The translations under genes were made by a program, and so were the position numbers. From assembly GCA_963770365.1 (NCBI GenBank), contig CAVYPN010000009.1, forward strand, positions 30,089 to 94,088: a stretch of 64,000 nucleotides of DNA, written 5' to 3'. The notes below the pieces were generated by a model that searched no databases, had not been told where the DNA came from, and saw only the letters and a list, made by a program, of their open reading frames with translations. Numbering within the stretch: the stretch's first letter is position 1; every line of letters begins with the position of its first letter. Source of the stretch: an uncultured Acidobacteriaceae bacterium. Its GTDB lineage: Bacteria > Acidobacteriota > Terriglobia > Terriglobales > Acidobacteriaceae. Below, one piece after another: positions 16,086 to 37,839 of the stretch.

Positions 16086-18167
16086 GTGGCTCGCACCATA
16101 CCTCTAAGTCGTTGCCGGAATATCGGAATCATGGCGCACATCGACGCCGGTAAGACGACTGCGACCGAACGCATCCTCTTCTACACGGGCATCACGCACC
16201 GCATTGGCGAAGTGCATGAGGGCACCGCGACCATGGATTACATGGAGCAGGAGCAGGAGCGCGGCATCACCATCACGTCGGCTGCAACCACGTGCATGTG
16301 GAAAGACATCCGCATCAATATCATCGACACGCCGGGCCACGTGGACTTTACCGCGGAGGTGGAGCGGTCCCTTCGTGTTCTCGACGGCGCGGTTGCGGTA
16401 TTTGATTCTGTCTCGGGCGTGCAGCCTCAGACGGAAACCGTGTGGCGGCAGGGCGATAAGTACAAGGTTCCGCGTATCTGCTTCGTGAACAAGATGGACA
16501 AGAACGGCGCCGATTTTGAGCACGTTCTTGACACGATTCGCAAGCGGTTGGGCGCGCGCCCTGTGGCGCTGCAGATTCCGATTGGCGCGGAAGCTGGTTT
16601 CAAGGGTGTCGTCGATCTCATCGAGATGAAGGCCGTCGTATGGCACGACGAAACCATGGGCGCCGAGTATGATGTCCAGGCGATTCCGGCCGATCTGCAG
16701 AAGAAGGCGGAAGCGTTCCGTCTGCAGCTGATCGAAGTGATTGCAGAGACCGACGATGTGCTGCTCGAGAAGTTTCTCGAAGGCGAGACGCCGACCATCG
16801 AAGAGTTGAAGAAGGGCATTCGCCAGGCGACCATCGATCTGAAGGTCTTCCCGGTGATCTGCGGTTCTGCGTTCAAGAACAAGGGCGTGCAGACGCTGCT
16901 TGATGCGGTTGTTGACTACCTGCCTAGCCCGCTCGACAAGCCTCCGGTGGAAGGTATCGATCCGCACGATCACAGCGTGACGCTGATTCGCAAGGCCGAC
17001 GATAACGAGCCGCTGTCGGCGTTGGTCTTCAAGCTGATCAACGATCCGTTCGGCAAGCTATCGTTTATCCGCATCTACTCGGGTTCGCTGAAAACAGGCG
17101 ACACGATTCTGAATCCGCGTACCGGCAAGACGGATCGCGTTGGACGCCTGGTCAAGATGCACGCCAACAAGCGTGAAGACATTTCCGAGATCTACGCCGG
17201 CGATATTTGCGCATGCGTGGGACTGAAGGAACTAAAGACAGGCGATACGCTGAGCGCTCCCCAGCATCCGATTGCGCTGGGCGCCATCACGTTCCCTGAG
17301 CCTGTGATCTCGGTGGCAATTGAGCCGAAGACCAAGGCTGACCAGGAAAAGATGGCGATGGGGTTGTCTCGGCTGGCTGATGAAGATCCAACCTTCAAGG
17401 TGCGTACCGACGAGGATTCGGGTCAGACGATTATCAGCGGCATGGGCGAGCTGCATCTTGAGATTCTTGTCGATCGCCTGAAGCGTGAGCACAAGGTTGA
17501 TGCCAATGTGGGCGAGCCCAAGGTGGCCTTCCGCGAGACGATTCGCAAGATGGCCGAAGCGGAAGGCAAGTACATTCGACAGACCGGCGGCTCGGGCAAC
17601 TACGGACATTGCAAACTGCGCGTCGAGCCGAATACTCCAGGTGCCGGTTACGAGTTCATCAACGAAATCAAGGGTGGATCGGTACCGAGGGAATACATCA
17701 AGCCTATCGATCAAGGCGTTCAGGGTGCGTTGGAATTGGGCATCCTGGCGGGCTTCCCGATCGTAGACGTGAAGGTGATCCTGTTCGACGGCAGCTATCA
17801 CGAAGTCGACTCGAACGAAATGGCATTCAAATTTGCAGGTTCGATCGCATTCAAAGAAGCCGCACGCAAGGCGCACCCGGTGCTTCTTGAGCCGGTGATG
17901 GCGGTGGAAGTCACTGTGCCCGAAGAGTACATGGGCGTGATCATCGGCGACATCAACTCGCGTCGCGGACGGATCGAAGGTATGGAACACGCGGCAGGAT
18001 CGCAAGTCATCAAGGCGATCGTTCCGCTGAAGGAAATGTTCGGCTACGTGAACGAGATTCGTTCCTCGACACAAGGCCGCGCGTCGTATTCGATGCAGTT
18101 TGCGCGCTACGAAGAGGCGCCGCGCATGATCGCCGATGAAATTATCGGCCGTTCGCAAGGGAAGTGA
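16086..18167 (+). CDS. fusA: Elongation factor G
   Basis: [31 protein letters not shown]; 693 aa. Confidence 0.99.
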
Positions 18168-18172
18168 TTGAG

Positions 18173-18275
18173 GCAGTTCGCAGTTCAGAGTTTGTAGTTC
18201 GCAGTTGAAAACCGGGCCGATTTGGCACGGGGGCTTCAGAAGCGTGGAGAACTAAGAACTTCGAACTGTGAACTC
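18173..18275. repeat. Inverted heptamer array, class A (fusA-tuf)
   Basis: AGTTCGC AGTTCAG AGTTTGT AGTTCGC AGTT - spacer - AACTAAG AACTTCG AACTGTG AACT. Confidence 0.9.
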
Positions 18276-18361
18276 AGATCTGGTTTTGGGGCTGGAGCCG
18301 GACAGCCGGCGCTCCTGGGAGCAACGGGCAGTAGAGCCACTGAAAGGGACTTGGATTTCTT

Positions 18362-19550
18362 ATGGCGAAGGAAAAATTTGATCGTTCGAAGCCGCATGTG
18401 AACGTGGGAACGATTGGCCACATCGATCACGGCAAGACGACGTTGACGGCGGCGATCACGAAGGTATTGCAGAAGCACAACCCGAAGAACACGTTCCGTT
18501 CGTTTGATTCGATCGACAACGCCCCGGAAGAGCGGGAGCGCGGCATCACGATCGCGACGGCGCACGTGGAGTACGAGACCAAGAACCGGCACTATGCGCA
18601 CGTGGACTGCCCCGGTCACGCCGACTACATCAAGAACATGATCACAGGCGCGGCGCAGATGGACGGCGCCATTCTGGTAGTGGCAGCGACTGACGGCCCG
18701 ATGCCGCAGACCAAGGAGCACGTTCTGCTGGCTCGCCAGGTAGGCGTGCCCTGCATCGTGGTGTTCCTGAACAAGTGCGATGCGGTCGAAGACGAAGAGC
18801 TGACGGACCTGGTTGAGATGGAAGTCCGCGAGCTGCTGTCGAAGTACCAGTTCCCGGGCGACGATGTTCCGGTCATCCGCGGTTCTGCTCTCGGAGCGCC
18901 TGAACGGGGAAGCCAAGTGGGAAGCGCAGATTGACGCGCTGATGGATGCGGTCGACCAGTACGTTCCGCAGCCGGAGCGCGCCGTGAACCTGCCCTTCCT
19001 GATGCCGATCGAAGATATCTTCTCGATCTCGGGACGCGGCACAGTAGTCACGGGAAGAATCGAACGCGGCAAGGTGAAGGTGGGCGAGGACGTCGAGATT
19101 GTCGGCTTCCGCGAGACCCGCAAGTCGGTTTGCACGGGCGTGGAAATGTTCAAGAAGCAGCTCGATGAAGGCCTGGCGGGCGATAACGCCGGCATCCTGC
19201 TGCGCGGCATTCCGAAAGAGGATGTCGAGCGCGGCATGGTTCTGGCGAAGCCGGGATCGATCACGCCTCATACCAAGTTCAAGGGCACCGTTTACGTATT
19301 GAGCAAGGAAGAAGGCGGCCGTCATACGCCGTTCTTCAAGGGCTACAGGCCGCAGTTCTACTTCCGGACTACAGATGTGACGGGAGTGGCGGAATTGCCC
19401 GAAGGCACGGAGATGGTAATGCCGGGCGACAATGTGGCACTGACGATTGAACTGATTACGCCGGTAGCCATGGAAAAGGGTCTGCGATTTGCCATCCGCG
19501 AAGGCGGACGCACGGTAGGTGCAGGCGCGATTTCGGAAATTATCAAGTAA
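18362..19550 (+). CDS. tuf: Elongation factor Tu, apparent +1 frameshift at 18899-18900
   Basis: [24 protein letters not shown] in ORF 18362-18934; the C-terminal half (LNGEAKWE...[10 protein letters not shown]) is in ORF 18813-19550. Removing one C from GCGCCTGAAC restores GSALGALNGE. Confidence 0.97.
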
Positions 19551-19552
19551 CG

Positions 19553-19655
19553 AGTGAAGAAGTGAAGCGGTGAAATAGTTAAGCAGTGAAAGAGTGAATT
19601 GGCAAGTTGCTGGCTGTTCACTTTTTCACTCGTTCACCGGTTCACTGCTTCACCG
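19553..19655. repeat. Inverted octamer array, class D (tuf-rpsJ)
   Basis: Six 8-mers AGTGAAGA AGTGAAGC GGTGAAAT AGTTAAGC AGTGAAAG AGTGAATT, then five inverse 8-mers GTTCACTT TTTCACTC GTTCACCG GTTCACTG CTTCACCG. Confidence 0.9.
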
Positions 19656-19667
19656 AAGGGAAGCCAA

Positions 19668-19985
19668 ATGGTAGGTCAGAGGATTCGAATTCGGTTGAAG
19701 GCATACGACTATCGCGTGCTGGATACCTCGACCGGCGAGATTGTGGAGACGGCCAAGCGCACCGGAGCAACGGTGGCAGGTCCGATTCCGTTGCCGACGA
19801 TCAAGAACAAGTACTGCGTGCTGCGTTCGCCGCACGTGGACAAGAAATCGCGCGAGGCGTTCGAGATTCGCACGCACAAGCGGCTGATCGACATTCTTGA
19901 GCCGACGCAACAGACGGTGGACGCGCTGATGAAGCTCGATCTGCCGGCCGGCGTTGACGTCGAGATCAAGGCGTTTGAAAAATAA
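19668..19985 (+). CDS. rpsJ: 30S ribosomal protein S10
   Basis: [25 protein letters not shown]. Confidence 0.99.
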
Positions 19986-20053
19986 GTTGCAGTTATCAGT
20001 TATCAGTCGTGCAGCAAGAAACTGAGAACTGAAAACTGAGAACTGAAGACTGG
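19985..20053. repeat. Inverted heptamer array, class C (rpsJ-rplC)
   Basis: AGTTGC AGTTATC AGTTATC AGTCGTG - AACTGAG AACTGAA AACTGAG AACTGAA GACTG. Confidence 0.85.
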
Positions 20054-20107
20054 ATTAGGTTCCGGCAGTGCGGCGCTTCAAGCCCCGCATGATGAGGTGA
20101 GGAAGAT

Positions 20108-20833
20108 ATGGCAGTCACAGGGATTCTGGGAAAAAAGATCGGCATGACGCAGGTCTTCGACGAGAAGGGCGATGTGCACCCGATTACGGTGCTGCAGGCA
20201 GGCCCTTGCGTGATTACGCAGCTGAAGACGCTGGCCAGGGATGGCTATGACGCGGCGCAGATTGGCCTCGTGGAGTTCATCAAGACGAAGAACGTCACCA
20301 AGCCGCAGGCCGGGCACTTCGCGAAGACGGAAGCGCCGCCGGTGAAGGTCATCAAGGAAGTCGACGTGGAAGCTTCTCCGGAAGGCGAAGTCGAAACCAA
20401 GGCAGGCGATCGCGTGCTGGTGGATATCTTCCAGGATGCAAAGTTTGTGGACGTGATTGGGACATCAAAAGGCCGCGGGTTTGCGGGCGTCGTTCGCCGA
20501 CACAAATTCGGCGGTGGACCCAAGTCGCACGGACATATGTTCCAAGTGCAGGGGTCTATCGGTGCATCCAGCTTTCCGTCGCGCGTGTTTCCGGGCCAGA
20601 GAATGCCCGGCCACATGGGCGCGGCGCAGATTACGGTTCGCAATCTGCGCATTCGCGGTATCGACCTGGAAGAGAACCTGCTGATGGTCGAGGGAGCGGT
20701 TCCGGGTGCGCGTGATGGGTATGTGCTGATTTCGAAGGCGAAGACGCCGCCGCGCGAGCGTCGTGGATTTGCCGGCTCGACCACGGTCGATCCGTTGAAG
20801 GCTTCGAAGAAGGCAACGGCGAAGCGTAAGTAG
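20108..20833 (+). CDS. rplC: 50S ribosomal protein L3
   Basis: GILGKKIGMTQ, DVIGTSKGRGFAG, GSIG, MPGHMG. Confidence 0.98.
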   Translation: MAVTGILGKKIGMTQVFDEKGDVHPITVLQAGPCVITQLKTLARDGYDAAQIGLVEFIKTKNVTKPQAGHFAKTEAPPVKVIKEVDVEASPEGEVETKAGDRVLVDIFQDAKFVDVIGTSKGRGFAGVVRRHKFGGGPKSHGHMFQVQGSIGASSFPSRVFPGQRMPGHMGAAQITVRNLRIRGIDLEENLLMVEGAVPGARDGYVLISKAKTPPRERRGFAGSTTVDPLKASKKATAKRK

Positions 20834-20947
20834 GCCACCTGTGGTGGGGCCAATCGCGCCTTGCGGCGCACGAGATGGAAGGCTGGCGGAAAGATGCCGG
20901 CGGAAGAGATTCAGGGCCGGGTGCAAGTCCGGCGGAAGAAGAAGACG

Positions 20948-21616
20948 ATGGCAAACGTAGATGTTGTAAATCTGAACGGCGAAAAGGTGGGCTCGCTCGA
21001 ACTGGCCGATGCAGTGTATGGCCAGGTGAACGAAGCTCTGCTTTGGGAAGCGGTGAAGCACTATCGCGCTTCGCTGCGCCAGGGCACGCACAAGACCAAG
21101 AGCCGCACTGAAGTCGCCGGTTCTGGCAAAAAGCTGTGGAAGCAGAAGGGCACAGGCCGTGCGCGTATCGGCTCAGTGCGCTCGCCGCTGTGGCGGCACG
21201 GTTATACCGTGCATGGACCCAAGCCGCGCACCTATGACTATGCGTTCCCCCGCAAAAAGCTGCAGGGGGCGTTGCGTTCGGCGCTGGCTTCAAAGCTGGC
21301 CGACGGGAAGCTGACGGTGGTCGACACGCTGGAGCTGAAAGAAGGCAAGACCAAGCTCTATCGCCAGGCGCTGGACAAGCTGGACGTGACACGCACGGCG
21401 CTGATTGTCGAAAACGGCAAGACGCTTTCGCAGGCATTGATGCTGGGTGCGCGCAATCTCAAGGGTGTTGAGCTGGTGCTGAACAACGAAGTGCATCCCT
21501 ACGATCTGCTTCGGTATGAGCGTGCGATCTTCTCGAAGGCCGCGATCGAGCAGTTGACGGATTCGCTCGTGAAGACCGTTTCAAAGCGCAGCGCTGCGCA
21601 TACGGAGGCTGCGTAA
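20948..21616 (+). CDS. rplD: 50S ribosomal protein L4
   Basis: RQGTHKTK.R.EV.GSGKK.WKQKGTGRAR. Confidence 0.98.
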   Translation: MANVDVVNLNGEKVGSLELADAVYGQVNEALLWEAVKHYRASLRQGTHKTKSRTEVAGSGKKLWKQKGTGRARIGSVRSPLWRHGYTVHGPKPRTYDYAFPRKKLQGALRSALASKLADGKLTVVDTLELKEGKTKLYRQALDKLDVTRTALIVENGKTLSQALMLGARNLKGVELVLNNEVHPYDLLRYERAIFSKAAIEQLTDSLVKTVSKRSAAHTEAA

Positions 21617-21909
21617 TGTCGAGTCTTTATACGGTGATTCGCCGGCCCTTGATTACGGAAAAGGGCTTGAGCGTAAAGGAAACCGAGGGCACGCTGGTGT
21701 TTGACGTGGCTCCGGATGCTTCGAAGACTGAGGTGAAGCAGGCGGTTGAGGCTCTCTTCAAGGTGAAGGTGGCCGCGGTGCGGACAGCGAACGTGGTGGG
21801 CAAGGAACGTCGCCGCGGAAAGTTTGCCGGCTTCAGACCGGACTGGAAGAAGGCTTACGTTCGGCTGAAGGCCGGCGAGAAGCTGCCGGAGTACGTGAGC
21901 AACCTGTAA
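21616..21909 (+). CDS. rplW: 50S ribosomal protein L23
   Basis: RPLITEK, EVKQAVE.LF.VKV, WKKAYV.L; TAATG overlap with rplD. Confidence 0.98.
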   Translation: MSSLYTVIRRPLITEKGLSVKETEGTLVFDVAPDASKTEVKQAVEALFKVKVAAVRTANVVGKERRRGKFAGFRPDWKKAYVRLKAGEKLPEYVSNL

Positions 21910-21914
21910 CGATG

Positions 21915-22003
21915 AGTTCGCAGTTCGTAGTTCAGAGTTCGCGGTTCGAAGCGAATCTGGGCTGCAACAAAACTGAGAACTACGAACTTAGAACTGTGAA
22001 CTG
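21915..22003. repeat. Inverted heptamer array, class A (rplW-rplB)
   Basis: AGTTCGC AGTTCGT AGTTCAG AGTTCGC GGTTCGA - AACTGAG AACTACG AACTTAG AACTGTG AACTG. Confidence 0.9.
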
Positions 22004-22016
22004 GTAGGAAAAAACG

Positions 22017-22841
<825 letters not shown>

Positions 22842-22856
22842 AGGAGCTGAGGGTAT

Positions 22857-23159
22857 ATGGCACGTTCGACGAAAAAGGGCCCGTTTGTGGATGCGCACCT
22901 GACAACAAAGATCGAGGTGCTCAACGTGGCCAACGATAAGAAGGTCGTGAAGACCTGGTCGCGGCGCTCGACGATCTTCCCGGAGTTTGTGGGACACACG
23001 ATCGCGGTGCACAACGGCAAAAAGTTCGTTCCGGTGTACGTGACCGAGAACATGGTGGGACACAAGCTGGGCGAGTTTGCTCCGACGCGCACGTTCAAGG
23101 GGCATACGGGCGGATCAAAGGCGGCGGAAGCTGTGGCGAAGCCGGCGGGACCGCGGTAG
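22857..23159 (+). CDS. rpsS: 30S ribosomal protein S19
   Basis: [31 protein letters not shown]. Confidence 0.99.
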
Positions 23160-23164
23160 GAAAA

Positions 23165-23200
23165 GCAGTGAGCAGTGGACAGTGAGCAGTGAGTTCACTG
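23165..23200. repeat. Heptamer array, class B, truncated right arm (rpsS-rplV)
   Basis: AGTGAGC AGTGGAC AGTGAGC AGTGAG followed by a single TTCACTG. Confidence 0.75.
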
Positions 23201-23234
23201 AATACCGCCAGCAAAGATTTTGAGGAAGAGACCA

Positions 23235-23753
23235 ATGGCAGTCGAGACAAAAGAATACCGGGCAGAAGCGAGGTTCCAGCGGGTGTCGCCGCAGAAGGCG
23301 CGGCTGGTGCTGGACCTGATCAAGGGCCGGGGAGTTCAGGAAGCGCTGGAGACGGCGCAGTTCACCAAGAAGCGCATAGCTCCGGTGATTCACAAGCTGC
23401 TGACTTCGGCCGTCGACAACGCCAAGTACGTGACAGGCGAGCAGGGGATTGATCTGGACGTCGACAACCTCTATGTGAAGTTGGCAATTGCCAACGACGG
23501 TCCGCGCATGAAGAGGATCCGGCCCGCTCCAATGGGGCGTGCGTATCGCTATCAGCGCAGGCTGACGCACATTATTTTGTCAGTCGCCGAGCGCGATGGC
23601 GGGCACTCGCACCTGGTGACCAAGGCTGACGAGCCGGAGACCGCTGCGAAGTCGACCAAGAAGGCAGGGGCGAAAAAGACAGCCCCGAGGACGGCAAAGA
23701 AATCAGCGGCGAAGAAGCCGGTTGCTGCAGCGAAGAAGAAGGCCAAGAAGTAG
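23235..23753 (+). CDS. rplV: 50S ribosomal protein L22 with Lys/Ala-rich C-terminal tail
   Basis: SPQKARLV.DLIKG, RIRPAPMGRA, THI; tail AAKSTKKAGAKK...KKKAKK. Confidence 0.98.
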   Translation: MAVETKEYRAEARFQRVSPQKARLVLDLIKGRGVQEALETAQFTKKRIAPVIHKLLTSAVDNAKYVTGEQGIDLDVDNLYVKLAIANDGPRMKRIRPAPMGRAYRYQRRLTHIILSVAERDGGHSHLVTKADEPETAAKSTKKAGAKKTAPRTAKKSAAKKPVAAAKKKAKK

Positions 23754-23890
23754 GCCGAGGATATTTTCAGGGTCGGTGCAAGCCGAAGCCTGGACAGTAA
23801 AGTCGACGCAGCCATCAGGGAGCGGCGATTCGAAAAAGGAACAAGGGCGCTGCAACCCTGGAAATGCAGTAGAGGTTTGAGGAAAAAAGT

Positions 23891-24559: not shown

Positions 24560-24561
24560 CG

Positions 24562-24653: not shown

Positions 24654-24671
24654 AGTTTTGAGGATTTCGCT

Positions 24672-28289: not shown

Positions 28290-28295
28290 AAGGCC

Positions 28296-29521: not shown

Positions 29522-29523
29522 AA

Positions 29524-29630: not shown

Positions 29631-29642
29631 AAAGAGAGAGCA

Positions 29643-30152
29643 ATGATGATCTTGAATAAGAAACTCGATGCCAACCAATACAACCTGAAGGATCAGGTGG
29701 TTTCCATTAACCGCGTGACCAAGGTGGTGAAGGGCGGCAAGAACATGTCGTTTGCCGCGCTGGTAGTGGTAGGCGATGCCGCCTCGGGTGTGGTGGGTTA
29801 CGGATCGGGCAAGGCGAAGGAAGTTCCCCAGGCCATTCGCAAAGGAATTGAAGCGGCCAAGAAAAACCTGGTTCGCATCAACCTGACCGATACGACGATT
29901 CCGCACCAGGTGCTGGGCCGCTACGGTTCGGGCCACGTGTTGCTGAAGCCGGCTCCAGAAGGAACGGGTGTGATTGCCGGCGGTGCGGTTCGCGCGGTGA
30001 TGACCTCAGTAGGCGTGCAGAACGTGCTGACCAAGAGCCTGGGAACGGCGAACCCGCACAACGTGATCAAGGCGACGTTCGATGCCTTGGTCCAGCTGCG
30101 TGACAGAGCCGATGTCGCAACAGCCCGCGGCAAGCAGGTTGAGGAGCTTTAA
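29643..30152 (+). CDS. rpsE: 30S ribosomal protein S5
   Basis: [38 protein letters not shown]. Confidence 0.99.
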
Positions 30153-30154
30153 TC

Positions 30155-30343
30155 ATGGCTGAAACCAAGAAGATTCGTATTGAATACTACCGCTCCAAGA
30201 ACTCCACCCCCGCCAAGCACAAAGCGGTTGTGAAGGGCCTTGGCTTTACGCGGCTCAACCAGGTCGTTGAGCGCGTGGACAACGAGTCAGTGCGTGGCAT
30301 GGTGAAGAAGGTGCCGCACCTTGTGCGAATTCTGGAAAACTAG
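30155..30343 (+). CDS. rpmD: 50S ribosomal protein L30
   Basis: 62 aa in canonical position; GLG..RLNQ.V...DN.SVRGMV.KV.HLV. Confidence 0.95.
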   Translation: MAETKKIRIEYYRSKNSTPAKHKAVVKGLGFTRLNQVVERVDNESVRGMVKKVPHLVRILEN

Positions 30344-30359
30344 TTTTCCAGAATTCGCA
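30324..30359. repeat. Perfect 36-bp palindrome centred on the rpmD stop codon
   Basis: TGCGAATTCTGGAAAACT|AGTTTTCCAGAATTCGCA; checked base by base. Confidence 0.95.
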
Positions 30360-30441
30360 GTTCACAGTTCTTAGTTCACAGTTCAGCACGTTCGCAGGAA
30401 CCTCGAACAACTGCGAACTTAGAACTACGAACTCAGAACTG
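30352..30441. repeat. Inverted heptamer array, class A (rpmD-rplO)
   Basis: AATTCGC AGTTCAC AGTTCTT AGTTCAC AGTTCAG - AACTGCG AACTTAG AACTACG AACTCAG AACTG. Confidence 0.9.
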
Positions 30442-30497
30442 AACGTAACGCGAGTCGATGGGGATCAACCTCACCGGCGCTATTAGCGAGGAAAATC

Positions 30498-30959
30498 ATG
30501 GCAAAGAATCTTTCAAATCTGCGCGCGCCCAAGAAGGCAAACACCGGGCGCAAGCGCGTGGGCCGGGGCATGGGATCCGGCATGGGCAAAACCTCAGCTC
30601 GCGGCCACAAGGGCCAGGGTTCCCGTTCGGGCTTCAGCCTGATGCGCGGCTTTGAGGGCGGCCAGATGCCGCTGCACCGCCGGCTTCCGAAGCGCGGCTT
30701 CACTAACATCTTCCGCACCGAGTACAGCGTGGTGAATCTTGACAGGTTTGCCGAGCTCTCGGTCAAGGAAGTCGGTTTGGACGATTACAAGAAACTGGGC
30801 CTGGTTTCGAGCAAGAAGGCGCTGATCAAAGTGCTTGGCTCGGGCGAGCTGACCACGGCGATTACCATCCACGCGCACAAGTTTTCCAAGTCGGCGGTCG
30901 AGAAGATCGAAAAGGCCGGCGGCAAGGCCGTTGTGGCGGGAGCGCCGGCGGCAGCGTAG
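30498..30959 (+). CDS. rplO: 50S ribosomal protein L15
   Basis: KRVGRG.GSGMGKTS.RGHKGQ.SR, FEGGQMPL.RRLPKRGF. Confidence 0.99.
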   Translation: MAKNLSNLRAPKKANTGRKRVGRGMGSGMGKTSARGHKGQGSRSGFSLMRGFEGGQMPLHRRLPKRGFTNIFRTEYSVVNLDRFAELSVKEVGLDDYKKLGLVSSKKALIKVLGSGELTTAITIHAHKFSKSAVEKIEKAGGKAVVAGAPAAA

Positions 30960-31076
30960 GACACCCATCCCCCGGGTTAAGAATCGAGATCCGGGGCACC
31001 CAATGTGTCCGCGAACACCGCCAAGCTGGTTTCCCGGCTGCCAAGATCGATAGCTGAAGGCATCCGGCGGAATTCG

Positions 31077-31106
31077 GGGACATGGGGCGACCTTCGCGCT
31101 TACACT
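31077..31106 (+). promoter_or_regulatory. Possible internal promoter upstream of secY
   Basis: GGGACA, 18 nt, TACACT (31101-06) in the ~200-nt rplO-secY spacer. Confidence 0.3.
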
Positions 31107-31157
31107 GGATTTTGGCAAGATCTGAGCGGCGTCATCGCCTGAAGCGGAAAACCAAAC

Positions 31158-32543
31158 ATGCTTGAAAAGTTTCTGAATATCTTCCGGATTCCTGACCTGC
31201 GCAAGCGGGTTCTGTTCACACTGGGCATTCTCGCCGTGTACCGCCTGGGTGCGTTTATTCCGACACCCGGCGTGAACACGACCCAGCTTGCGCTGATGTT
31301 CAACTCACAAAGCGGATCAGCGCTTGGTCTGATGGACCTGTTCGGCGGCGGCAACCTGCGCCGTATGACCATCTTTGCGCTGGGCATCATGCCCTATATC
31401 ACCGCGTCCATCATCTTCCAGTTGCTGACCGTGGTCTATGAGCCGCTGGCGCGCATCCAGAAAGAAGGCGAACTGGGCCGGCGGAAGATCACGCAATGGA
31501 CGCGCTACGTGACGGTGGTTTTGGGTGCGCTGCAGTCCATTGGTATCGCGGCCATTCTTACCAGGCAAGGCCTTGTGCTGAACCCTGGTATCGGCTTCAG
31601 CCTGATGACGGTGCTCACGTTGACCACCGGCACTGCGTTCATCATGTGGCTCGGCGAGCAGATTACGGATCGCGGCATCGGCAACGGCATGAGTTTGCTG
31701 ATCTTCGCAGGAATCATTGCAGGCCTGCCCCGCGGTGTTGCCGAACTGGTGACCAAGGTACAGACCAGCGCCTGGGGATCGCTTACCATCTTCGCTGTTC
31801 TGATTATGGTCGTGGGCATGATCGCGGTCGTTGCGTTCATTGTCTTTGTGGAGCGCTCGGAGCGCCGCATTCCCATCCAGAGCGCCCGGCGCATTGTCGG
31901 CCGCCGCATGATGGGCGGCTCATCCAGCCACTTGCCCCTGAAGGTGAACTCCGGCGGCGTCATGCCGGTCATCTTCGCCAGCTCGATTCTCTCGGCGCCG
32001 CTGCTGTTCGGGCAGATGGAGTGGGTGCAGAACAACCGCTTCTTCCAGCCGATCATCCAGGCGCTGGCCCCGGGCTATCCCTGGTATGAACTGCTGTACA
32101 TGCTGGGCATCATCTTCTTTGCCTACTTCTACGTATCGATCGTGATGAAGCCGGACGATATCGCCGACAACTTCCGCAAATCCGGATCGTTTATTCCCGG
32201 CATCCGGCCCGGCAAGCGCACTTCAGACTTCATCAACGACATTCTTACCCGCATCACGCTGGTAGGCGCGCTCTATCTCATCATCATTTCCCTGGTGCCC
32301 ACCTTCCTCATTTCGGGCATTCGCTTTGACAAGATTTGGCTGATCGGTAGGTTCTTTGAGAGTTTGCCTACCTGGGCTACGCACGGTTTGGGGGTCAATT
32401 TCTACTTTGGCGGCACCTCGCTGCTGATCGTAGTGGGTGTCGCTATGGACACTGTCAACCAGATCGAATCGCAGCTGATCATGCGCCACTATGACGGCTT
32501 TTCCCCGCGTTCCGGTCGTATACGCGGAAGGAAAAACTGGTAA
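31158..32543 (+). CDS. secY: Preprotein translocase subunit SecY
   Basis: IFALGIMPYITASII.QLL, WLGEQIT.RGIGNG.S, FIPGIRPG..T, GGTSLLI.VGV. Confidence 0.99.
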   Translation: MLEKFLNIFRIPDLRKRVLFTLGILAVYRLGAFIPTPGVNTTQLALMFNSQSGSALGLMDLFGGGNLRRMTIFALGIMPYITASIIFQLLTVVYEPLARIQKEGELGRRKITQWTRYVTVVLGALQSIGIAAILTRQGLVLNPGIGFSLMTVLTLTTGTAFIMWLGEQITDRGIGNGMSLLIFAGIIAGLPRGVAELVTKVQTSAWGSLTIFAVLIMVVGMIAVVAFIVFVERSERRIPIQSARRIVGRRMMGGSSSHLPLKVNSGGVMPVIFASSILSAPLLFGQMEWVQNNRFFQPIIQALAPGYPWYELLYMLGIIFFAYFYVSIVMKPDDIADNFRKSGSFIPGIRPGKRTSDFINDILTRITLVGALYLIIISLVPTFLISGIRFDKIWLIGRFFESLPTWATHGLGVNFYFGGTSLLIVVGVAMDTVNQIESQLIMRHYDGFSPRSGRIRGRKNW

Positions 32544-33322
32544 TGTTGTCGTCTGCAGCAAGTGTTGAAAGTGCAAGAGAAGCAATAGAAGGAGATCGAG
32601 GGTCGGCAAGAATGATCGTACCCGGACCGATTCTCCTGTTGGGTGCACCGGGCGTGGGAAAGGGTACCCAGGCCAAGGAACTGGTGCAACATTGGGGGAT
32701 ACCCCAGATTTCGACCGGAGACCTGCTCCGCGCCAATGTGGCGCAGGGCACGCCTCTCGGCAAAACGGCCAAGGAGATCATGCACCGGGGAGAACTGGTT
32801 CCGGACTCCCTTGTAAATGAGATGGTGGCCGTGAGACTTCAGCAACCGGATACGGTCAAAGGCTACATTCTGGACGGGTTCCCGCGGACTTTGGCGCAGG
32901 CTCACTGGCTGGATGGACGTCTGGCGGTGGGGGCCGGCGACAGGTCTTCGTCGCAGGGGTCACTGGCGACACAAACAGAGGCTTTGCCGCTTATTGCCGT
33001 CAGTATCCAAGTGGATTATAATCAGTTATTGCGCCGGATTACGGGGCGCAGGAACTGCCCGGTCTGCCAGACCATCTACAACATCTATACAAAGCCGCCC
33101 CAAAGGGCTGGTTTTTGTGATGTTGAAGGGGCTGCACTGATCCAGCGAGCCGATGACACGGAGAAGGCTTTTGCGGAGCGCATGCGCAGCTACGCTGCCC
33201 AAACCGCGCCTGTGATTGAGCACTATCGGGAGCTGGGGCGATTTGTAGAAGTGCCTGGAGATGGGCCGATCGCCGCAATTGCGGCTGGAATTGTGGCTTC
33301 CGTTGAGCGGCTGCGCCAATAG
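32543..33322 (+). CDS. adk: Adenylate kinase
   Basis: GAPGVGKGTQA, ISTGDLLR, LDGFPRT, Cys-containing LID, RADD. Start may be 32612. Confidence 0.97.
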   Translation: MLSSAASVESAREAIEGDRGSARMIVPGPILLLGAPGVGKGTQAKELVQHWGIPQISTGDLLRANVAQGTPLGKTAKEIMHRGELVPDSLVNEMVAVRLQQPDTVKGYILDGFPRTLAQAHWLDGRLAVGAGDRSSSQGSLATQTEALPLIAVSIQVDYNQLLRRITGRRNCPVCQTIYNIYTKPPQRAGFCDVEGAALIQRADDTEKAFAERMRSYAAQTAPVIEHYRELGRFVEVPGDGPIAAIAAGIVASVERLRQ

Positions 33323-33376
33323 CGCGGTGCGCGAACGGGGTTTTGTGCGTGTAGTGGAGTCGAAAGGGCATACGAA

Positions 33377-34129
33377 GTGGCGGTCGTACTGAAGTCGTCT
33401 CTGGAGATCGAAAAGATGCGCCGCGCGGGCAAGGTTGTCCGCGAGGTCCTGGAGTTGGTGCGCAGCCACGTGAAACCTGGCGCAACGACTCTCGATCTCG
33501 AGAAGGTGGCAGAATCGCGGATCAACGAGCTCGGCGCCAAGCCGGCCTTCAAGGGTTATCACGGGTTTCCGTGCGTGCTCTGCACCTCGATCAACAATGA
33601 AGTGGTGCACGGCATTCCTTCGAAGAAGCGAGTCCTCAGAGAAGGGGACATTGTTTCGGTTGACTGCGGTGCAATTGTCGATGGCTACTACGGGGATGCC
33701 GCGATCACGGTGCCGGTGGGCGAGAAGATTGCGCCCGATACGGCGAGGCTGCTCGAGGTAACGGAGAAGTCGTTGCATGCGGGCATCTCGGCGGTGAAGC
33801 CGGGAGCGACACTGGGCGATATCGGCAATGCGGTGCAGAAGGTGGTCGAGGCCGAGGGCTTCTCGGTGGTACGGGATTTTGTCGGCCACGGAATTGGCAG
33901 CCACATGCACGAAGATCCGCAGGTGCCGAACTTCGGCGAAGCGGGTTCAGGCATGCGGTTGCGCGCAGGAATGGTGATCGCCATTGAGCCCATGGTGAAT
34001 GCCGGCAAGCCGGATGTGCGCGTGTTGCGCGATGGCTGGACGGCAGTGACAGGCGATGGAAGCATGAGTGCTCATTTTGAGCACACGGTGGCGGTTACCG
34101 ACACCGGGGCGAAGGTTCTGACTGAGTAA
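33377..34129 (+). CDS. map: Methionine aminopeptidase type I
   Basis: [44 protein letters not shown]. Confidence 0.99.
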
Positions 34130-34209
34130 AACTCAGTCCAAAACTTGAGAGTGCGGAAGCACTCCAAAACACAAGGGCGCGCAAGCGCGCACCCAGAAGT
34201 GGATACAGT

Positions 34210-34428
34210 TTGTCGAAGGAAGACGCGATTGAGGTCATGGCAACGGTCACAGAGACGTTGCCCAACGCCATGTTCAAGGTGAAGCTCGAGACGAATCACG
34301 AAGTGCTGGCCCATGTCTCGGGAAGAATGCGCAAGAACTTCATCCGTATCTTACCGGGTGACCGCGTAGCCGTAGAACTGAGTCCGTACGACCTGAACCG
34401 CGGGCGAATTGTGTACCGCTACAAGTGA
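34210..34428 (+). CDS. infA: Translation initiation factor IF-1
   Basis: TTG start; [35 protein letters not shown]. Confidence 0.99.
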
Positions 34429-34508
34429 GTTAGCAGTTCATAGTTCTAAGTTCATAGTCTGTCTGCGTTCGGTATCAGCGAAAACTACGAACTCAGAACT
34501 ACGAACTT
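34428..34508. repeat. Inverted heptamer array, class A (infA-rpmJ)
   Basis: AGTTAGC AGTTCAT AGTTCTA AGTTCAT AGTCT - AACTACG AACTCAG AACTACG AACTT. Confidence 0.88.
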
Positions 34509-34554
34509 ATTCAAACCGCGTTGTTCGTAGATGCGCGGAGAAGGGCAGTAATCA

Positions 34555-34668
34555 ATGAAGGTCCGTGCATCGGTAAAGAAGATTTGCGTGAAATGCAAGG
34601 TCATCAACCGCCGTGGGGTGGTTCGGGTGATCTGCGAAAACGCAAAGCACAAGCAGCGCCAGGGCTAG
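34555..34668 (+). CDS. rpmJ: 50S ribosomal protein L36 (too short for the ORF track)
   Basis: Translated by hand: [37 protein letters not shown], 37 aa. Confidence 0.98.
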
Positions 34669-34700
34669 TTAGTCTGGCAAGAAGGCGGAAACTCCACACG

Positions 34701-34790
34701 AGTTCTAAGTTTGGAGTTCGTAGTTCACAGTTGGATCGCGCAATAGCAAAAGTTGTAACTGTGAACTTAGAACTTTGAACTGCGAACTCC
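34701..34790. repeat. Inverted heptamer array, class A (rpmJ-rpsM)
   Basis: AGTTCTA AGTTTGG AGTTCGT AGTTCAC AGTTG - AACTGTG AACTTAG AACTTTG AACTGCG AACTCC. Confidence 0.9.
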
Positions 34791-34906
34791 GCAAGGGGCT
34801 AGTTAGCTTGAGTCAAGGCTTGCGATGAACCCCGGAGTAACCCGCATTAACCCGTGCGAGCCGGTTAAGGCCGGAGGCACAAAACAGAAGTAGCAAAGGA
34901 TTCAGA

Positions 34907-35293
34907 ATGGCACGTATTGCTGGCGTCGATCTGCCCCGCAACAAGCAGGCTCGGATCGCGCTCACATACATCTACGGCATCGGCAATCCCCGATCGCTGA
35001 AGATCCTGGAGAAGGCGCATGTTGACGCCAACAAAAAGGTCCAGGACCTCAGCGAAGAAGAGGTAAACCACATCCGCCAGGTGATTGAGGACGAGGGTGA
35101 CGTCGAGGGCGATCTCCGCAAAGACACCCAGATGCACATCAAGCGCCTCATCGATATTCAGAGCTACCGCGGCAACCGGCATCGCCGGTCGTTGCCGGTA
35201 CGTGGACAACGCACCCACACCAATGCACGCACCCGCAAGGGACCGCGTAAGGGCACAGTGGCGGGCAAGAAGAAAGCGACGGCGAAGACCTAA
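34907..35293 (+). CDS. rpsM: 30S ribosomal protein S13
   Basis: [35 protein letters not shown]. Confidence 0.99.
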
Positions 35294-35715
35294 TGGCGAA
35301 ACCAGAGCAGAAGGCCGCAGCCGGCAAAGCTGGCAAGAACAAGAAATTCAAGAAGCGCGAGCGCAAGAATGTGCCGTTCGGCATTTGCCACATTCAGGCG
35401 TCGTTCAACAACACCATCGTGACCATCACCGACCAGGTGGGCAACACGCTCAGCTGGAAGAGCTCGGGTTCGCTCGGCTTCCGCGGTTCGCGCAAGGGCA
35501 CGCCGTTCGCGGCGCAGCAGGCTGCGTCCAATGCGGCGTCCATGGCGCGCGATCACGGTCTACGGGCAGTCGACGTACGCGTTGCCGGTCCCGGATCGGG
35601 CCGCGAGTCGGCCATCCGTGCGCTCGCAGCAGCGGGCATCGACGTTCGCTCAATCCGCGACGTTACGCCGGTGCCGCACAATGGTTGCCGTCCGCCGAAG
35701 CGGCGTCGCGTGTAA
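35293..35715 (+). CDS. rpsK: 30S ribosomal protein S11
   Basis: [46 protein letters not shown]. Confidence 0.99.
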
Positions 35716-35717
35716 AA

Positions 35718-35796
35718 GCAGTTCAGAGTTTGTAGTTCTTAGTTCAAAGTTTGCGGGCTTCGTACCCAAACTAAGAACTACGAACTTAGAACTCAA
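35718..35796. repeat. Inverted heptamer array, class A (rpsK-rpsD)
   Basis: AGTTCAG AGTTTGT AGTTCTT AGTTCAA AGTTTG - AACTAAG AACTACG AACTTAG AACTCAA. Confidence 0.9.
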
Positions 35797-35870
35797 AACA
35801 TAAACATGGGCCGGGACGACCTGCGCACCGTCGCACGTAAACCGGCCGACATCCGAAGTCAGGAGAAGAA

Positions 35871-36500
35871 ATGGCTCGTTATACCGGAGCAGTCTGCCGC
35901 CTTTGCCGTCGCGAAGGCACCAAGCTCTTCTTGAAGGGCACCAAATGTTTATCGGACCGTTGCCCGATTGAGAAGCGCAACTTTCCTCCCGGACAACACG
36001 GCAAGGACCGCAAGGCCAAGATTGTGGGCTACGGCCTGCAGCTGCACGAAAAGCAGAAGGCCAAGCGTATGTACTTCACGCTCGAAGGCCAGTTCCGCGA
36101 GTACTACGAGAAGGCCAACCGCGCCCAGGGCGTCACCGGCGAATTGCTGATTCAGCAGCTCGAGCGGCGCCTGGATAACGTGGCTTTCCGTCTCGGCTTT
36201 GCCATTTCGCGCCGCCAGGCACGCCAGGTTGTTCGCCACGGCCACGTTTCCGTCAACGGCCGCAAGGTGAACATTCCTTCGTTCCAGGTGAACGTGGGCG
36301 ACGAGATCGCGATTCGCGAGTCTGCGAAGAAGCTGATCATCATCGAGCAGGGCACACAGTACGCCGCGCAAAACCCGGTGCCGGTGTGGCTCGAAGCGAA
36401 TTTTGAAAACATGTCTGGGCGCATTCTCAGCCTGCCCAAACGTAAGGACGTCAACCTCCCGATCAACGAACAGCTGATCGTCGAGTTGTACTCGAAGTAA
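35871..36500 (+). CDS. rpsD: 30S ribosomal protein S4 (zinc-binding form)
   Basis: [22 protein letters not shown]....[23 protein letters not shown]. Confidence 0.99.
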
Positions 36501-36502
36501 AA

Positions 36503-36595
36503 GCAGTTCACAGTTCAAAGTTCGCAGTTGTGGGCCGGTGGCGCGATTCGGCAACCGGCCATAACTAAGAACTATGAACTGCGAACTAAGAACTT
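36503..36595. repeat. Inverted heptamer array, class A (rpsD-rpoA)
   Basis: AGTTCAC AGTTCAA AGTTCGC AGTTGTG - inner stem GGCCGGT/ACCGGCC - AACTAAG AACTATG AACTGCG AACTAAG AACTT. Confidence 0.9.
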
Positions 36596-36671
36596 AACGC
36601 AAAGGAGAACTTGCGCGGCCGCCGCAAAATGCATCGCGACGTACCTGCCGCGCGGGAAAAGAGATAACGAT

Positions 36672-37766
36672 ATGCTTTGGAGAGGATTCCAAAAACCGAA
36701 GCGCCTGGCAGTTGATGCCGAGTCGCTCAGCGAAACATTTGGCAAGTTCAGCGCCCAGCCCTTTGAGCGCGGATTTGGCACAACCATCGGCAATGCCCTG
36801 CGCCGCACGCTGCTCAGCTCGATCGAGGGCGCCGCGGTCACAGCGGTTCGCATCGAAGGCGTGTTGCACGAGTTCCAATCGATCGCCGGCGTTGTGGAAG
36901 ATGCGACCGACATCATCCTGAATCTCAAACAGATTCCCTTCAAGCTTTCGGGCGATGGTCCCAAAGCGCTCTACCTGCGCGCTGACCAGCCCGGTGTGGT
37001 CACCAGCGGCATGATCGAAGCCGACGGTGAAGTGGAGATTCTGGATAAGAACGTGTACATCGCCACCGTCTCTGAAGGCGGCCGGCTTGAGATGGAAATG
37101 CGCCTGAAGCGTGGCCGCGGATACATTTCGGCCGACAAGAACTTCGACGCCGATCTCGGCCTGGGCTTCATCCCGGTGGATTCGGTCCACTCGCCCGTGC
37201 GCCGCGTGAACTACGTGGTCGAAGCCGCCCGTCTGGGTCAGATCACCGACTACGACAAGCTCACCCTCGAAGTGTGGACGAACGGCGCGGTTCTTCCCGC
37301 CGATGCTGTGGGTCTGGCAGCGAAGCTGCTGAAAGACCACATGAATATCTTCATCAACTTCGAAGAAGAAATCGAAGCTGAGTCGCGCGGTGAAGAAGGC
37401 CGCGTGATGCTGCGCAACGACAACCTGAACCGCTCAGTCGAAGAGCTGGAACTGTCGGTCCGCAGCTACAACTGCCTGAAGAACGCAAACATTCAGACCA
37501 TCGGCGAGCTGGTGCAGAAGACCGAAGCCGAGATGCTGAAGACCAAGAACTTTGGCCGCAAGAGTCTGAACGAGATCAAGGAAATTCTCGCGCAGATGGG
37601 CCTCTCGCTGGGTATGAAGATCGACGAGAGCGGCAATGCCGTTCCCGGGCCGACCAGCATTCCGCCGGCGACAGCACTGGCTGCCAACTACAGCCACTAC
37701 GACGATGAGGACGAGCCGCTGGATTCAGTCGATCTCCAGCTGCCTACCGAGACCGAGAACTTCTAG
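36672..37766 (+). CDS. rpoA: DNA-directed RNA polymerase subunit alpha
   Basis: [53 protein letters not shown]; ATG 36672 after GGAAAAGAG. Confidence 0.99.
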
Positions 37767-37839
37767 AGTTCTCAGTTGTCAGTCGTCAGTTCTCAGTCGC
37801 ATCTGGGAACTGACAACTGAAATCTGACAACTGACGACT
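37767..37839. repeat. Inverted heptamer array, class C (rpoA-rplQ)
   Basis: AGTTCTC AGTTGTC AGTCGTC AGTTCTC AGTCGC - AACTGAC AACTGAA ATCTGAC AACTGAC GACT. Confidence 0.9.

Follow-up and report, generated by a model that had tools for sequence, protein, structure and literature searches.

The stretch of DNA analysed here (the window) comprises 64,000 nucleotides (nt) from an uncultured Acidobacteriaceae bacterium (contig CAVYPN010000009.1), and its ribosomal protein gene cluster contains paired inverted arrays of 7-nt units, here called cassettes, nearly all of which begin at, or a few nt from, the stop codon of the gene in front of them. This anchoring at stop codons is real and strand-specific. 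It most likely reflects a constraint at the level of the translated mRNA, because only translation "knows" where stops and starts are, and the anchoring depends on orientation.

Placement of the cassettes at stop codons

The window has a G+C content of 58-60%. The cluster occupies 15.0-38.3 kb on the plus strand and consists of rpsL-rpsG-fusA-tuf followed by the S10, spc and alpha operons as far as rplQ. Every intergenic region (IGR) from fusA to rplQ was extracted, and arrays were located by phased AGT/ACT runs, by Tandem Repeats Finder (TRF) and by a core-independent period scan. The three methods agree that 19 IGRs bear inverted arrays of 7-nt units; the rpsH-rplF region has a direct array in addition to its inverted cassette. 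Tracing of hairpins in minimum free energy (MFE) structures missed many elements, which have irregular apical loops, and a sequence-based detector of period 7 was used instead. The arrays extend over 18,173-37,839, with a period of 7 only (once 8). The period scan found zero arrays in the other ~44 kb of the window and zero in ~100 kb of flanking sequence, and no heptad array lies 3' of rplQ.

Each cassette consists of a left arm of four to five tandem units YAG-NNNN (in the window mostly C/T-AGTTC-N) and a right arm of four to five reverse-complement units, NGAACT(R). The arms are 28-36 nt long and enclose a loop of 25-42 nt that is unique to each junction, for a total length of 91-111 nt. 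The minority cores in the window are CAGTGAN (rpsS-rplV and rplR-rpsE), CAGTNNT (rpsJ-rplC, rplX-rplE and rpoA-rplQ) and an 8-mer (tuf-rpsJ). The individual elements are listed below, where z compares the stability of the predicted fold with dinucleotide shuffles and SD is the Shine-Dalgarno sequence.

18173-18281, + strand: fusA-tuf cassette; arms (C/T/G)AGTTCN x5 (left) and NGAACT x5 (right) around a 41-nt loop; first AGT 7 nt past the TGA; z -3.85
19551-19655, + strand: tuf-rpsJ cassette with 8-nt period (GTGAANNN / NNNTTCAC); ends 12 nt 5' of the rpsJ ATG; z -7.06
19985-20053, + strand: rpsJ-rplC cassette (CAGTNNT); left arm overlaps the TAA, right arm (A/G)AACTGA x5 is TAACTGA-like; z -3.26
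21914-22004, + strand: rplW-rplB cassette with 5+5 units; 2-4 nt between right arm and SD AGGA; z -6.04; RNA contig 21682-22011
23164-23199, + strand: rpsS-rplV, left arm only (CAGTGAG x4) plus one complementary unit; AAAAGCAGT junction; z -1.5, hairpin not significant
24563-24654, + strand: rpsC-rplP cassette; ~5 nt between right arm and SD GAGGA; z -4.70; RNA contig 24482-24826
26316-26399, + strand: rplN-rplX cassette; 4 nt between right arm and SD GGAG; z -3.30; variant lacking one 7-nt unit at 26323 (run X27)
26745-26830, + strand: rplX-rplE cassette; left arm CAGTNNT x5 intact, right arm decayed (GCTGA type); z -1.07; RNA contig 26413-27168
27449-27538, + strand: rplE-rpsN cassette; 3 nt between right arm and SD GAGGA; z -4.88; slot empty (14-nt IGR) in relatives L002 and L006
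27743-27816, + strand: rpsN-rpsH cassette, conserved leader next; z -5.44; RNA contig 27134-27943
28295-28384, + strand: rpsH-rplF first cassette (AGTTC type); z -4.70
28424-28464, + strand: rpsH-rplF second array, direct CTGATCA/CACTGAN without left partner, ends in CTGCTTTT; detected by TRF; found in 6 of 9 genomes
29037-29120, + strand: rplF-rplR cassette; first unit begins at the A of the TAG stop; z -4.57
29524-29629, + strand: rplR-rpsE cassette (CAGTGAA type); ends 13-15 nt before the ATG; z -3.29; 3' part of loop orthologous to the CAGC-type cassettes of relative L005
30352-30442, + strand: rpmD-rplO cassette; degenerate first unit AATTCGC; z -5.93; RNA contig 30327-30658
34428-34507, + strand: infA-rpmJ cassette; first unit begins at the A of the TGA; z -4.40; slot empty (51-nt IGR) in relatives L003, L004, L006, L007 and L008
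34700-34790, + strand: rpmJ-rpsM cassette, 31-32 nt past the stop between two conserved blocks; z -6.37; absent in relatives L003, L004, L007 and L008
35718-35800, + strand: rpsK-rpsD cassette; TAAAAGCAGT junction; z -6.67; MFE and centroid registers differ
36503-36594, + strand: rpsD-rpoA cassette; TAAAAGCAGT junction; z -9.01
37767-37839, + strand: rpoA-rplQ cassette of the CAGTNNT type; directly behind the TAG, with T6 next; z -6.42

The distances from the stop codon to the first AGT are, in the order of the IGRs, 7, 2, 5, 5, 7, 4, 2, 6, 4, 7, 6, -2, 4, 15, -1, 32, 4, 4 and 0 nt; the gap of 15 nt, after rpmD, becomes 8 nt if the degenerate unit is counted. The left end therefore lies between -2 and +8 nt from the stop in 17 of the 19 cassettes strictly and in 18 with the degenerate rpmD unit, and the sole exception is rpmJ-rpsM (32 nt). 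This agrees with the first-pass annotation of this DNA, according to which 18 of 19 arrays start within 8 nt of a stop, and the overlap with the stop that it described at rpsJ, rplF and infA, as well as the abutment at rpoA, are both seen. The comparison with random positions that it called for was made for the 19 IGRs of the window. Uniform placement within each IGR gives 4.8 cassettes within 8 nt (8.4 if the last 12 nt are kept for a ribosome-binding site, RBS); the observed 18 was reached in 0 of 200,000 simulations. The junction sequence AAAAGCAGT is present in five copies against 0.48 expected, and four of them are at the stops of rpsS, rplR, rpsK and rpsD, which had indeed been reported to share one junction. 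The fifth copy is a complement at the right end of the second rpsH-rplF array, which shows that the cassette termini are themselves inverted, AAAGCAG...CTGCTTT.

The right ends are of two kinds. At rplB, rplP, rplX and rpsN, where the right arms had been said to end just 5' of the SD, the distance is 2-5 nt, and the same holds for rpsJ, rpsE and, roughly, rplQ, making 6-7 of 19. These arms end 11-23 nt 5' of the start codon. The other 12 right arms end 35-118 nt before it, at conserved leaders. The earlier proposal of a hairpin that leaves the SD free thus fits 6-7 cassettes and does not fit the remaining ones. Translationally coupled gene pairs contain no element, as was claimed, but this is trivial, since their junctions overlap or are 2 nt long; for secY-adk the coupling is itself uncertain, since the start of adk is ambiguous.

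Within this operon a passive component of the anchoring is evident, because each cassette fills the whole non-conserved slot, from 0-8 nt past the stop to the conserved leader or the next SD, because empty alleles of the slots measure only ~10-14 nt, and because the rpmJ-rpsM cassette is displaced behind conserved sequence. An exact-pattern scan for four AGTTC units in one genome per GTDB species returned at least 120 loci, for which the chance expectation, by a rough estimate, is few. The loci listed span Acidobacteriota, Planctomycetota, Bacteroidota, Verrucomicrobiota, Cyanobacteriota, Gemmatimonadota and others, and the number of units ranges from 3 to 47. Gene ends were taken from a simple greedy caller of open reading frames (ORFs). 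Among the matches listed, a stop codon lies within 10 nt in 32 of 51 AGTTC-sense arrays (median 6 nt) as against 9 of 46 GAACT-sense arrays (Fisher p=3e-5), while a start codon lies within 10 nt in 21 of 54 GAACT-sense arrays as against 4 of 31 in the opposite orientation (p=0.014). In the same matches the pair order AGTTC...GAACT occurs 20 times and the reverse 3 times. Units of the YAG kind thus lie by stops and units of the CTR kind by starts, which makes the constraint strand-specific.

Many of the cross-phylum junctions merge the stop with the first unit (TGA|GTTC, TAG|TTC, TAA|GTTC), and at the loci L045, L069 and L071 the array abuts the ATG. The ORFs upstream of arrays, among the matches listed, prove to be genuine genes, among them those for GroEL, FKBP and cyclophilin isomerases, YchF, TyrRS, RpoN, PurA, FtsY, PhoU and DnaA. 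The str-S10-spc-alpha or ribosomal protein cluster accounts for 7 of 120 listed AGTTC matches and 10 of 120 matches to TAGCNTC, a second heptad type. In the TAGCNTC scan, made in metagenomes, the association with starts was replicated (22 of 56 versus 4 of 37).

One locus in another Acidobacteriaceae metagenome-assembled genome (MAG), L012:2917-3075, has AGTTCNC x7 ... GAGAACT x5 apparently between divergently read genes, with a minus-strand start on the left (read by eye) and a plus-strand ATG ~46 nt to the right. If the genes are divergent, the GAGAACU repeats would lie in the 5' untranslated region of each gene, and the same DNA architecture can occur without a hairpin in a single transcript.

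Near-identical sequence is present in four soil metatranscriptomes, which were available as assembled contigs only and in which carry-over of DNA is possible. The contigs span five cassettes whole and parts of two more, from coding sequence to the next coding sequence or its last bases (for example 26413-27168, 27134-27943, 30327-30658, 24482-24826 and 21682-22011). This is as expected if the cassettes are part of the polycistronic ribosomal protein mRNA. In contigs of co-occurring strains the divergence from the window sets in at stop codons or a few nt away from them (27735, 28289, 34666-34670 and 19981-19986), and one contig from run X27 is a natural variant lacking exactly one 7-nt unit at window position 26323.

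Folding and remodelling in place

ViennaRNA predicts long hairpins of ~5-bp helices split by symmetric internal loops (168 of 1x1 and 86 of 2x2), with few helices longer than 7 bp. The predicted folds are far more stable than dinucleotide shuffles in 17 of 19 cassettes, with z from -3.3 to -9.0; rpsS-rplV and rplX-rplE, in which the right arm is missing or decayed, do not show this. The fraction of Watson-Crick pairs at the seven heptad phases, in the best ungapped register, is 1.00, 0.99, 0.96, 0.88, 0.75, 0.48 and 0.25. Five core positions of the heptad pair, and the other two, at 48% and 25%, are near chance; avoidance of pairing is not claimed for them, as at least one cassette has an alternative register. 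Complementarity of the spacers in the innermost register is 29.8% versus 38.2% in shuffles, a value that depends on the register chosen. The mismatched positions hold G-U and A-C in equal measure, 109 versus 110 overall.

The identical cores permit multiple registers. At 35716-35802 the MFE and centroid registers differ, and the shifted register pairs the "spacer" bases in an almost perfect 18-bp helix. The right arm 5' of a cistron is also complementary to the left arm 3' of it, so that helices closing a whole cistron would be possible.

No match to the cassettes was found in Rfam at the gathering score, and relaxed thresholds gave only spurious sub-threshold look-alikes of microRNA hairpins. 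Promoter-like and terminator-like signals are not enriched over shuffles (terminator-like sites 23 versus 22.6 expected, none on a cassette), and internal promoters or terminators were rejected as a general reading for lack of any excess. The GC-rich stem with U-tract of an intrinsic terminator is not seen, and only three to four cassettes have T runs behind them. A T6 stands behind the rpoA-rplQ cassette (37767-37845) and a T5 behind the second rpsH-rplF array (28424-28469; CTGCTTTTT); from their sequence these two, unlike the others, could be partial intrinsic terminators or attenuators. Backup stop codons in three frames were rejected because most units are CAG and not TAG. Arrays of RNase E sites (AG|UUC) would fit the AGTTC type only, and Rho-utilisation sites would fit AGUUCUC arrays elsewhere but not the composition of the window. 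Nor does purine/pyrimidine composition account for the polarity, as this does not hold for the CAGTGA type.

The cassettes were compared with those of relatives, represented by eight contigs (L001-L008) with an identical S11 protein and coding regions of 88-90% nucleotide identity, which together with the window make nine genomes. The relatives carry cassettes in the same junctions with other cores: TAGCTTC (L003, L004, L007 and L008), CAGCTNT (L002 and L005), CAGTGAN (L006), and further CAGGGAT and an 8-mer. Of the 155 IGRs that measure 40 nt or more, 102 contain arrays, and in 80 of these 102 the left gap does not exceed 8 nt; the others are mostly detection failures or belong to the rpmJ-rpsM slot. 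Each junction has its own fixed right end, either at the edge of a block that is near-identical in the nine genomes or at the SD. The arms have four to five units in 137 of 156 cases, and this size is constant across five or more core types. The polarity is constant as well: phased AG occurs in 56 of 62 distinct left arms, with C or T before it in 86% of units, and phased CT in 57 of 62 right arms. The two arms are equal in regularity and length, so that the left arm as the primary module was rejected within the genus.

Ten junctions are occupied in eight to nine of the nine genomes despite turnover of the repeat sequence, and the five core positions are retained while the spacers drift. Some slots are empty in some species: rplE-rpsN (14 nt), infA-rpmJ (51 nt), and rpmJ-rpsM, whose cassette is also absent in some. 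Comparison of filled and empty alleles of these three slots revealed no target-site duplications. The left-arm units of rplX-rplE are orthologous between species, since the unit-specific variable bases TAT, CAT, TCT and YTT are kept, and in rplR-rpsE the 3' part of the loop is common to CAGTGA-type and CAGC-type cassettes. Because these sequences are orthologous between species with different cores, the alignments indicate that the cassettes are long-term residents remodelled in place and not repeatedly inserted.

In four of the five orthologous rplX-rplE units, position 4 has changed between T and C in parallel (window 26745-26779 compared with L001, L002 and L005). The hypergeometric p-value, calculated post hoc, is ~0.003, and none of the explanations considered here fully accounts for the change. 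The resulting CAGU units of the window would pair with GCUG via G-U.

Leader-like blocks of 45-110 nt lie directly 5' of rplE (26831-26896), rpsH (27831-27893), rplF (28401-28498), rplR (29123-29173), rplO (30446-30497), rpmJ (34511-34554), rpsM (34796-34906), rpsD (35803-35870) and rpoA (36600-36671). They are near-invariant in the nine genomes, are predicted to be structured and have no Rfam match. They are candidates for autoregulatory leaders of ribosomal protein genes.

Explanations for the anchoring

The first-pass annotation tied the placement to translation termination and re-initiation by way of a hairpin. Its connection with the translated mRNA is borne out by the orientation bias at stops and starts described above, but the hairpin as the agent is not established. 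The explanation favoured here, although held tentatively, is that the cassette acts as a self-contained, easily unzipped hairpin that begins inside the footprint of the terminating ribosome and serves as a protector and insulator between cistrons. Under selection on the translated mRNA, the cassette would start within the stretch that is still covered and unwound by the terminating ribosome, roughly 10-12 nt 3' of the stop, so that no naked single-stranded RNA would be left between the last ribosome and the hairpin. The cassette would then be an inter-cistron structural module, combining a 3' protector and a folding insulator for each cistron. In the 6-7 of 19 cassettes that directly adjoin the SD, each termination event would open the base of the hairpin, which would free the standby region of the next RBS and aid coupling.

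Several observations weigh against this explanation. A selected helix in the sense-strand RNA would be expected to show an excess of G-U over A-C, and none is found at the cores (37 versus 36). The same 5-nt core is present in every unit of every AGTTC cassette, an identity that pairing alone does not need. In this operon the anchoring may be largely passive, given empty slots of 10-14 nt and an rpmJ-rpsM cassette that stands 31 nt from the stop because conserved sequence comes first there. Among the matches listed from the other phyla, 11 of 32 stop-anchored arrays have no complementary arm within 160 nt; these partnerless arrays were judged by a complementarity z-score, as MFE pairing with downstream sequence is uninformative without a control. 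Most of them have 40-500 nt free on the other side of the IGR, which implies that anchoring there does not come from lack of space. The stop association of TAGCNTC arrays is not orientation-specific (19 of 48 versus 24 of 76), and their pair polarity is not replicated (3 versus 6); both values are confounded by the presence of TAG in both orientations, which truncates ORF calls. Finally, according to a review (PMC12548453), structure just 3' of the stop correlated negatively with translational coupling in a random-library screen. The lack of a G-U excess, the partnerless anchored arrays and the identical cores favour either a reader of a short core repeated every 7 nt or a neutral repeat shaped by slippage and survivorship.

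The latter, a neutral or selfish foldback simple-sequence DNA, is a less probable alternative. In such a case slippage would make the arrays, template switching would make the inverted copies, and the anchoring would be survivorship where the repeats are harmless. Among long simple-sequence repeats, those of heptanucleotides are described as the commonest class in many bacteria (Mrazek 2007, as cited in PMC4679880), which suits this origin, as do the natural variant in unit number, the sometimes empty slots (rplE-rpsN, infA-rpmJ and rpmJ-rpsM), the occupation of the entire non-conserved slot by the cassette, the equality of G-T and A-C at the cores, a symmetry at the DNA level, and the range of 3 to 47 units elsewhere. 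It is difficult to reconcile with the uniform four to five units per arm across five or more cores and nine genomes, with the retention of five core positions while spacers drift, with occupancy in eight to nine of nine genomes at ten junctions despite turnover, or with the zero arrays in ~100 kb of neighbouring sequence. Survivorship alone, moreover, predicts neither the orientation bias at stops and starts nor the A..G versus G..A polarity (20 versus 3 among the matches listed).

It is also conceivable, though unlikely, that the arrays are operators for an oligomeric protein that reads a short core every 7 nt on RNA and competes with the complementary arm, as a cistron-boundary switch for the ribosomal proteins. 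Such a reader might be a ring protein like HutP or TRAP, and cold-shock or S1 domains that bind cooperatively are also candidates. The 7-nt period of YAG-N4 in the left arms of 56 of 62 cassettes has a precedent in HutP and the hut operator of B. subtilis, in which (XAG-N4)x3 occurs twice between the hutP stop and the hutH start (PMC2425495). Cores that stay identical between free spacers resemble the mark of a protein that reads sequence, and such a protein could be invoked for the parallel T/C change at position 4 in four of five rplX-rplE units and for the partnerless arrays that are still anchored at stops. In addition, binding of S1, Csp or CsrA was proposed by MacGregor for TAACTGA repeats 5' of starts (PMC4679880). 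Several cores coexist in one genome (AGTTC, CAGTGA, CAGTNNT and the 8-mer in the window), however, neither arm looks primary, as both are equally regular and long, and the 4-nt "spacer" of the YAG reading is itself conserved. The more specific proposal, by analogy with HutP and TRAP, is somewhat less likely again: the YAG-N4 arrays would be operators of a new oligomeric RNA-binding regulator of this type, situated directly behind the terminating ribosome and competing with the complementary arm, as a global switch for ribosomal protein and housekeeping genes in Acidobacteriota and several other phyla.

Action on double-stranded DNA appears improbable. The arrays might be heptad sites for a cooperative protein (of the omega-like ribbon-helix-helix or the IHF/HU type), or cruciform or gyrase sites in a highly transcribed operon. 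The ribbon-helix-helix omega repressor binds direct and inverted 7-bp heptads on DNA. The symmetry of the arms in regularity and length and the equality of G-T and A-C at the cores are consistent with a DNA site, and analogous paired repeats of Geobacter metallireducens were read as binding sites of a global regulator (Aklujkar et al. 2009, PMC2700814). Neither the anchoring at stops and starts nor the orientation with respect to the coding strand would be explained by binding to DNA; it is not obvious why sites should lie inside an operon directly behind stop codons, and promoter-like signals are not enriched.

A pause hairpin between cistrons is very improbable. RNA polymerase would pause after the right arm and the ribosome at the stop would melt the base of the hairpin, thereby resynchronising transcription with translation and preventing Rho-dependent polarity. 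The pause hairpins of leader peptides offer an analogy. The lack of U-tracts, which argues against terminators, the left end within reach of the terminating ribosome, and the confinement to a long, highly expressed operon are in accord with pausing, but this model does not sit well with the partnerless arrays or with the 12 cassettes whose right ends are far from the next RBS.

Equally remote, and the least supported option, are mobile foldback elements, that is, miniature inverted-repeat transposable elements (MITEs) with a machinery that targets the 3' ends of genes, as the first-pass annotation had proposed in its second alternative: the architecture resembling terminal inverted repeats, the conserved termini AAGCAG...CTGCTT, the differences in presence between species, the coexistence of several "families" per genome and a polarity like that of inward-facing binding sites are outweighed by the absence of target-site duplications at filled versus empty slots, by 19 loops that all differ, with no near-identical copies that include internal sequence, by the rplX-rplE units and the rplR-rpsE 3' loop segment that persist while the cores change, and by the lack of any known way for a DNA machinery to recognise ~19 different stop codons. 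A genuine MITE-like insertion also looks quite different. It is found in the rpsQ-rplN IGR of L006 (L006:637-752), where the slot of 26-27 nt in the other eight genomes carries a 113-nt insertion with ~15-bp terminal inverted repeats (AACCGGTCTCATGAA...TTCATGAGACCGGTT), and it is a conventional element of this class, quite unlike the heptad cassettes.

Relation to known repeats and significance

The closest parallel in architecture is provided by the paired tandem hepta- and octanucleotide repeats of G. metallireducens, described in three classes (1-3) as "predicted global regulator binding sites" (PMC2700814). Both there and in the cassettes, three to five tandem repeats of 7-9 nt are paired on opposite strands at variable distance. 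In both, several classes coexist in one genome, are absent from a sister species and include cases inside operons (proB-proA in Geobacter). The published consensuses are GTTGCTYN, TCTCCGTS and MTYCTGA, and among these consensuses a likeness to the right-arm units of the cassettes, NNACTGA or GCTGA, is confined to the CTGA tail of class 3 (compare MTYCTGA with NNNACTGA and GCTGA). The Geobacter sites differ in being described as multicopy DNA motifs, with a guess at IHF/HU binding, and belong to another phylum with other cores. Their description includes no stop anchoring, polarity rule, hairpin anatomy or concentration in the ribosomal protein operon.

Direct repeats of the TAACTGA heptamer have been described in Beggiatoaceae, Cyanobacteria and Bacteroidetes, with a suspected role in translation (MacGregor 2015, PMC4679880). 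They share with the cassettes the tandem heptamers and an ACTGA-like core, and they stand in forward orientation directly 5' of starts, including those in ribosomal protein operons (fusA, L3 and S4). Forward heptamers near starts are found in part here, in 6-7 of 19 right arms in the window and in the start bias of GAACT-sense arrays (21 of 54 versus 4 of 31 among the matches listed). The BOGUAY genome has 169 direct TAACTGA sets and one indirect (inverted) set, and no partner arm at the upstream stop is described. The cassettes, unlike these repeats, consist of NGAACTN-like units in stop-anchored inverted pairs of fixed size.

Repetitive extragenic palindromes (REPs) and the bacterial interspersed mosaic elements (BIMEs) built from them are GTAG- or CGTC-tagged palindromes thought to stabilise the upstream mRNA (PMC3733652). 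As in the cassettes, the repeats are transcribed hairpins past stops and between co-transcribed genes. A REP is a single palindrome of 20-40 bp, whereas a cassette has arms of 28-36 nt with four to five heptads and a total of 91-111 nt, and the GTAG or CGTC end tag is not found; the cassette termini are (A)AGCAG...CTGC(TT). REPs are present in hundreds of copies throughout a genome together with a REP-associated tyrosine transposase (RAYT), while all cassettes within the sampled 64 kb lie between 18 and 38 kb. In 2015, Liang, Rudd and Deutscher are said to have reported that termination is affected by REPs lying within ~15 nt of the stop. Inverted repeats in intercistronic or 3' positions can stabilise segments of mRNA, as is well known from the 3' ends of chloroplast transcripts, the malE-malF REP and the hairpins of the puf operon. 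Like the cassettes, these are non-terminating hairpins just past stops, but they have unique sequences without internal periodicity.

The HutP protein binds (XAG-N4)x3, a 12-17-nt linker and (XAG-N4)x3 between the hutP stop and the hutH start, with spacers that are sequence-independent (PMC2425495). The operators of HutP and TRAP resemble the cassettes in having NAG triplets every 7 nt (here phased AG in 56 of 62 left arms) together with an intercistronic hairpin, and in hut the protein competes with that hairpin. In hut, however, the two sites point the same way along the RNA, one on either side of a GC-rich terminator stem, while the second arm of a cassette is the reverse complement of the first. 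A second NAG cluster in the same orientation is not found, as phased AG occurs in right arms only for AGCT cores (19 of 62). A further difference is that the 4-nt "spacers" of the cassettes are conserved and that 19 copies are present in one operon.

Earlier mentions of such repeats are scattered (Geobacter in 2009, Beggiatoaceae in 2015), and neither reports a stop-codon anchor or a polarity rule. What is new here is the fixed-size inverted pair as the unit, the polarity rule, the stop anchor, and the saturation of the ribosomal protein operon with evolutionary persistence in it. The 19 copies saturate the most conserved and most highly expressed operon of the bacterium, and the slots have been kept in relatives although the repeat sequence has turned over. 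If the anchoring is functional, the cassettes would represent a widespread cistron-boundary device that links translation termination to mRNA structure, stability or re-initiation, and the role of bacterial heptanucleotide repeats, a question of long standing, would become directly testable. If it is passive, they would be a clean example of selection on translated mRNA shaping where repeat DNA survives. In either case the cassettes account for the unusually long IGRs in the ribosomal protein operons of Acidobacteriaceae, and they should be masked or modelled during annotation. They also lead to chimeric joins in short-read assemblies, since the short-read RNA contigs jump between cassettes, for example from 30384 to 21971 and from 36500 to 23166.

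Many assemblies of soil metagenomes contain the exact S11 protein of the window, and a Terracidiphilus sp. MAG belongs to its 90% cluster. The products of fusA and tuf in the Acidobacteriaceae MAG L071 (GTDB) have 76-94% amino-acid identity to those of the window. These matches place the organism in the Acidobacteriaceae (Terriglobia), near Terracidiphilus. The rplC-rplD IGR of the window (20834-20947) has no heptads and contains a GC-rich stretch with repeated CCGGCGGAAGA; the same slot in L071 (L071:2974-3034) is occupied by a short cassette, with 3 nt between the end of its (GAACTGA)x4 arm and the rplD ATG. A canonical intrinsic terminator at 38384-38425 (GGGCGCATTCT...AGAATGTGCCC followed by a T-run), ~40 nt past rplQ, marks the end of the operon. 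The tuf gene appears as two overlapping ORFs, 18362-18934 and 18813-19550. All four metatranscriptomes are one base shorter at 18898, which shows that the frameshift is an assembly indel error in the window and that tuf is not a pseudogene.

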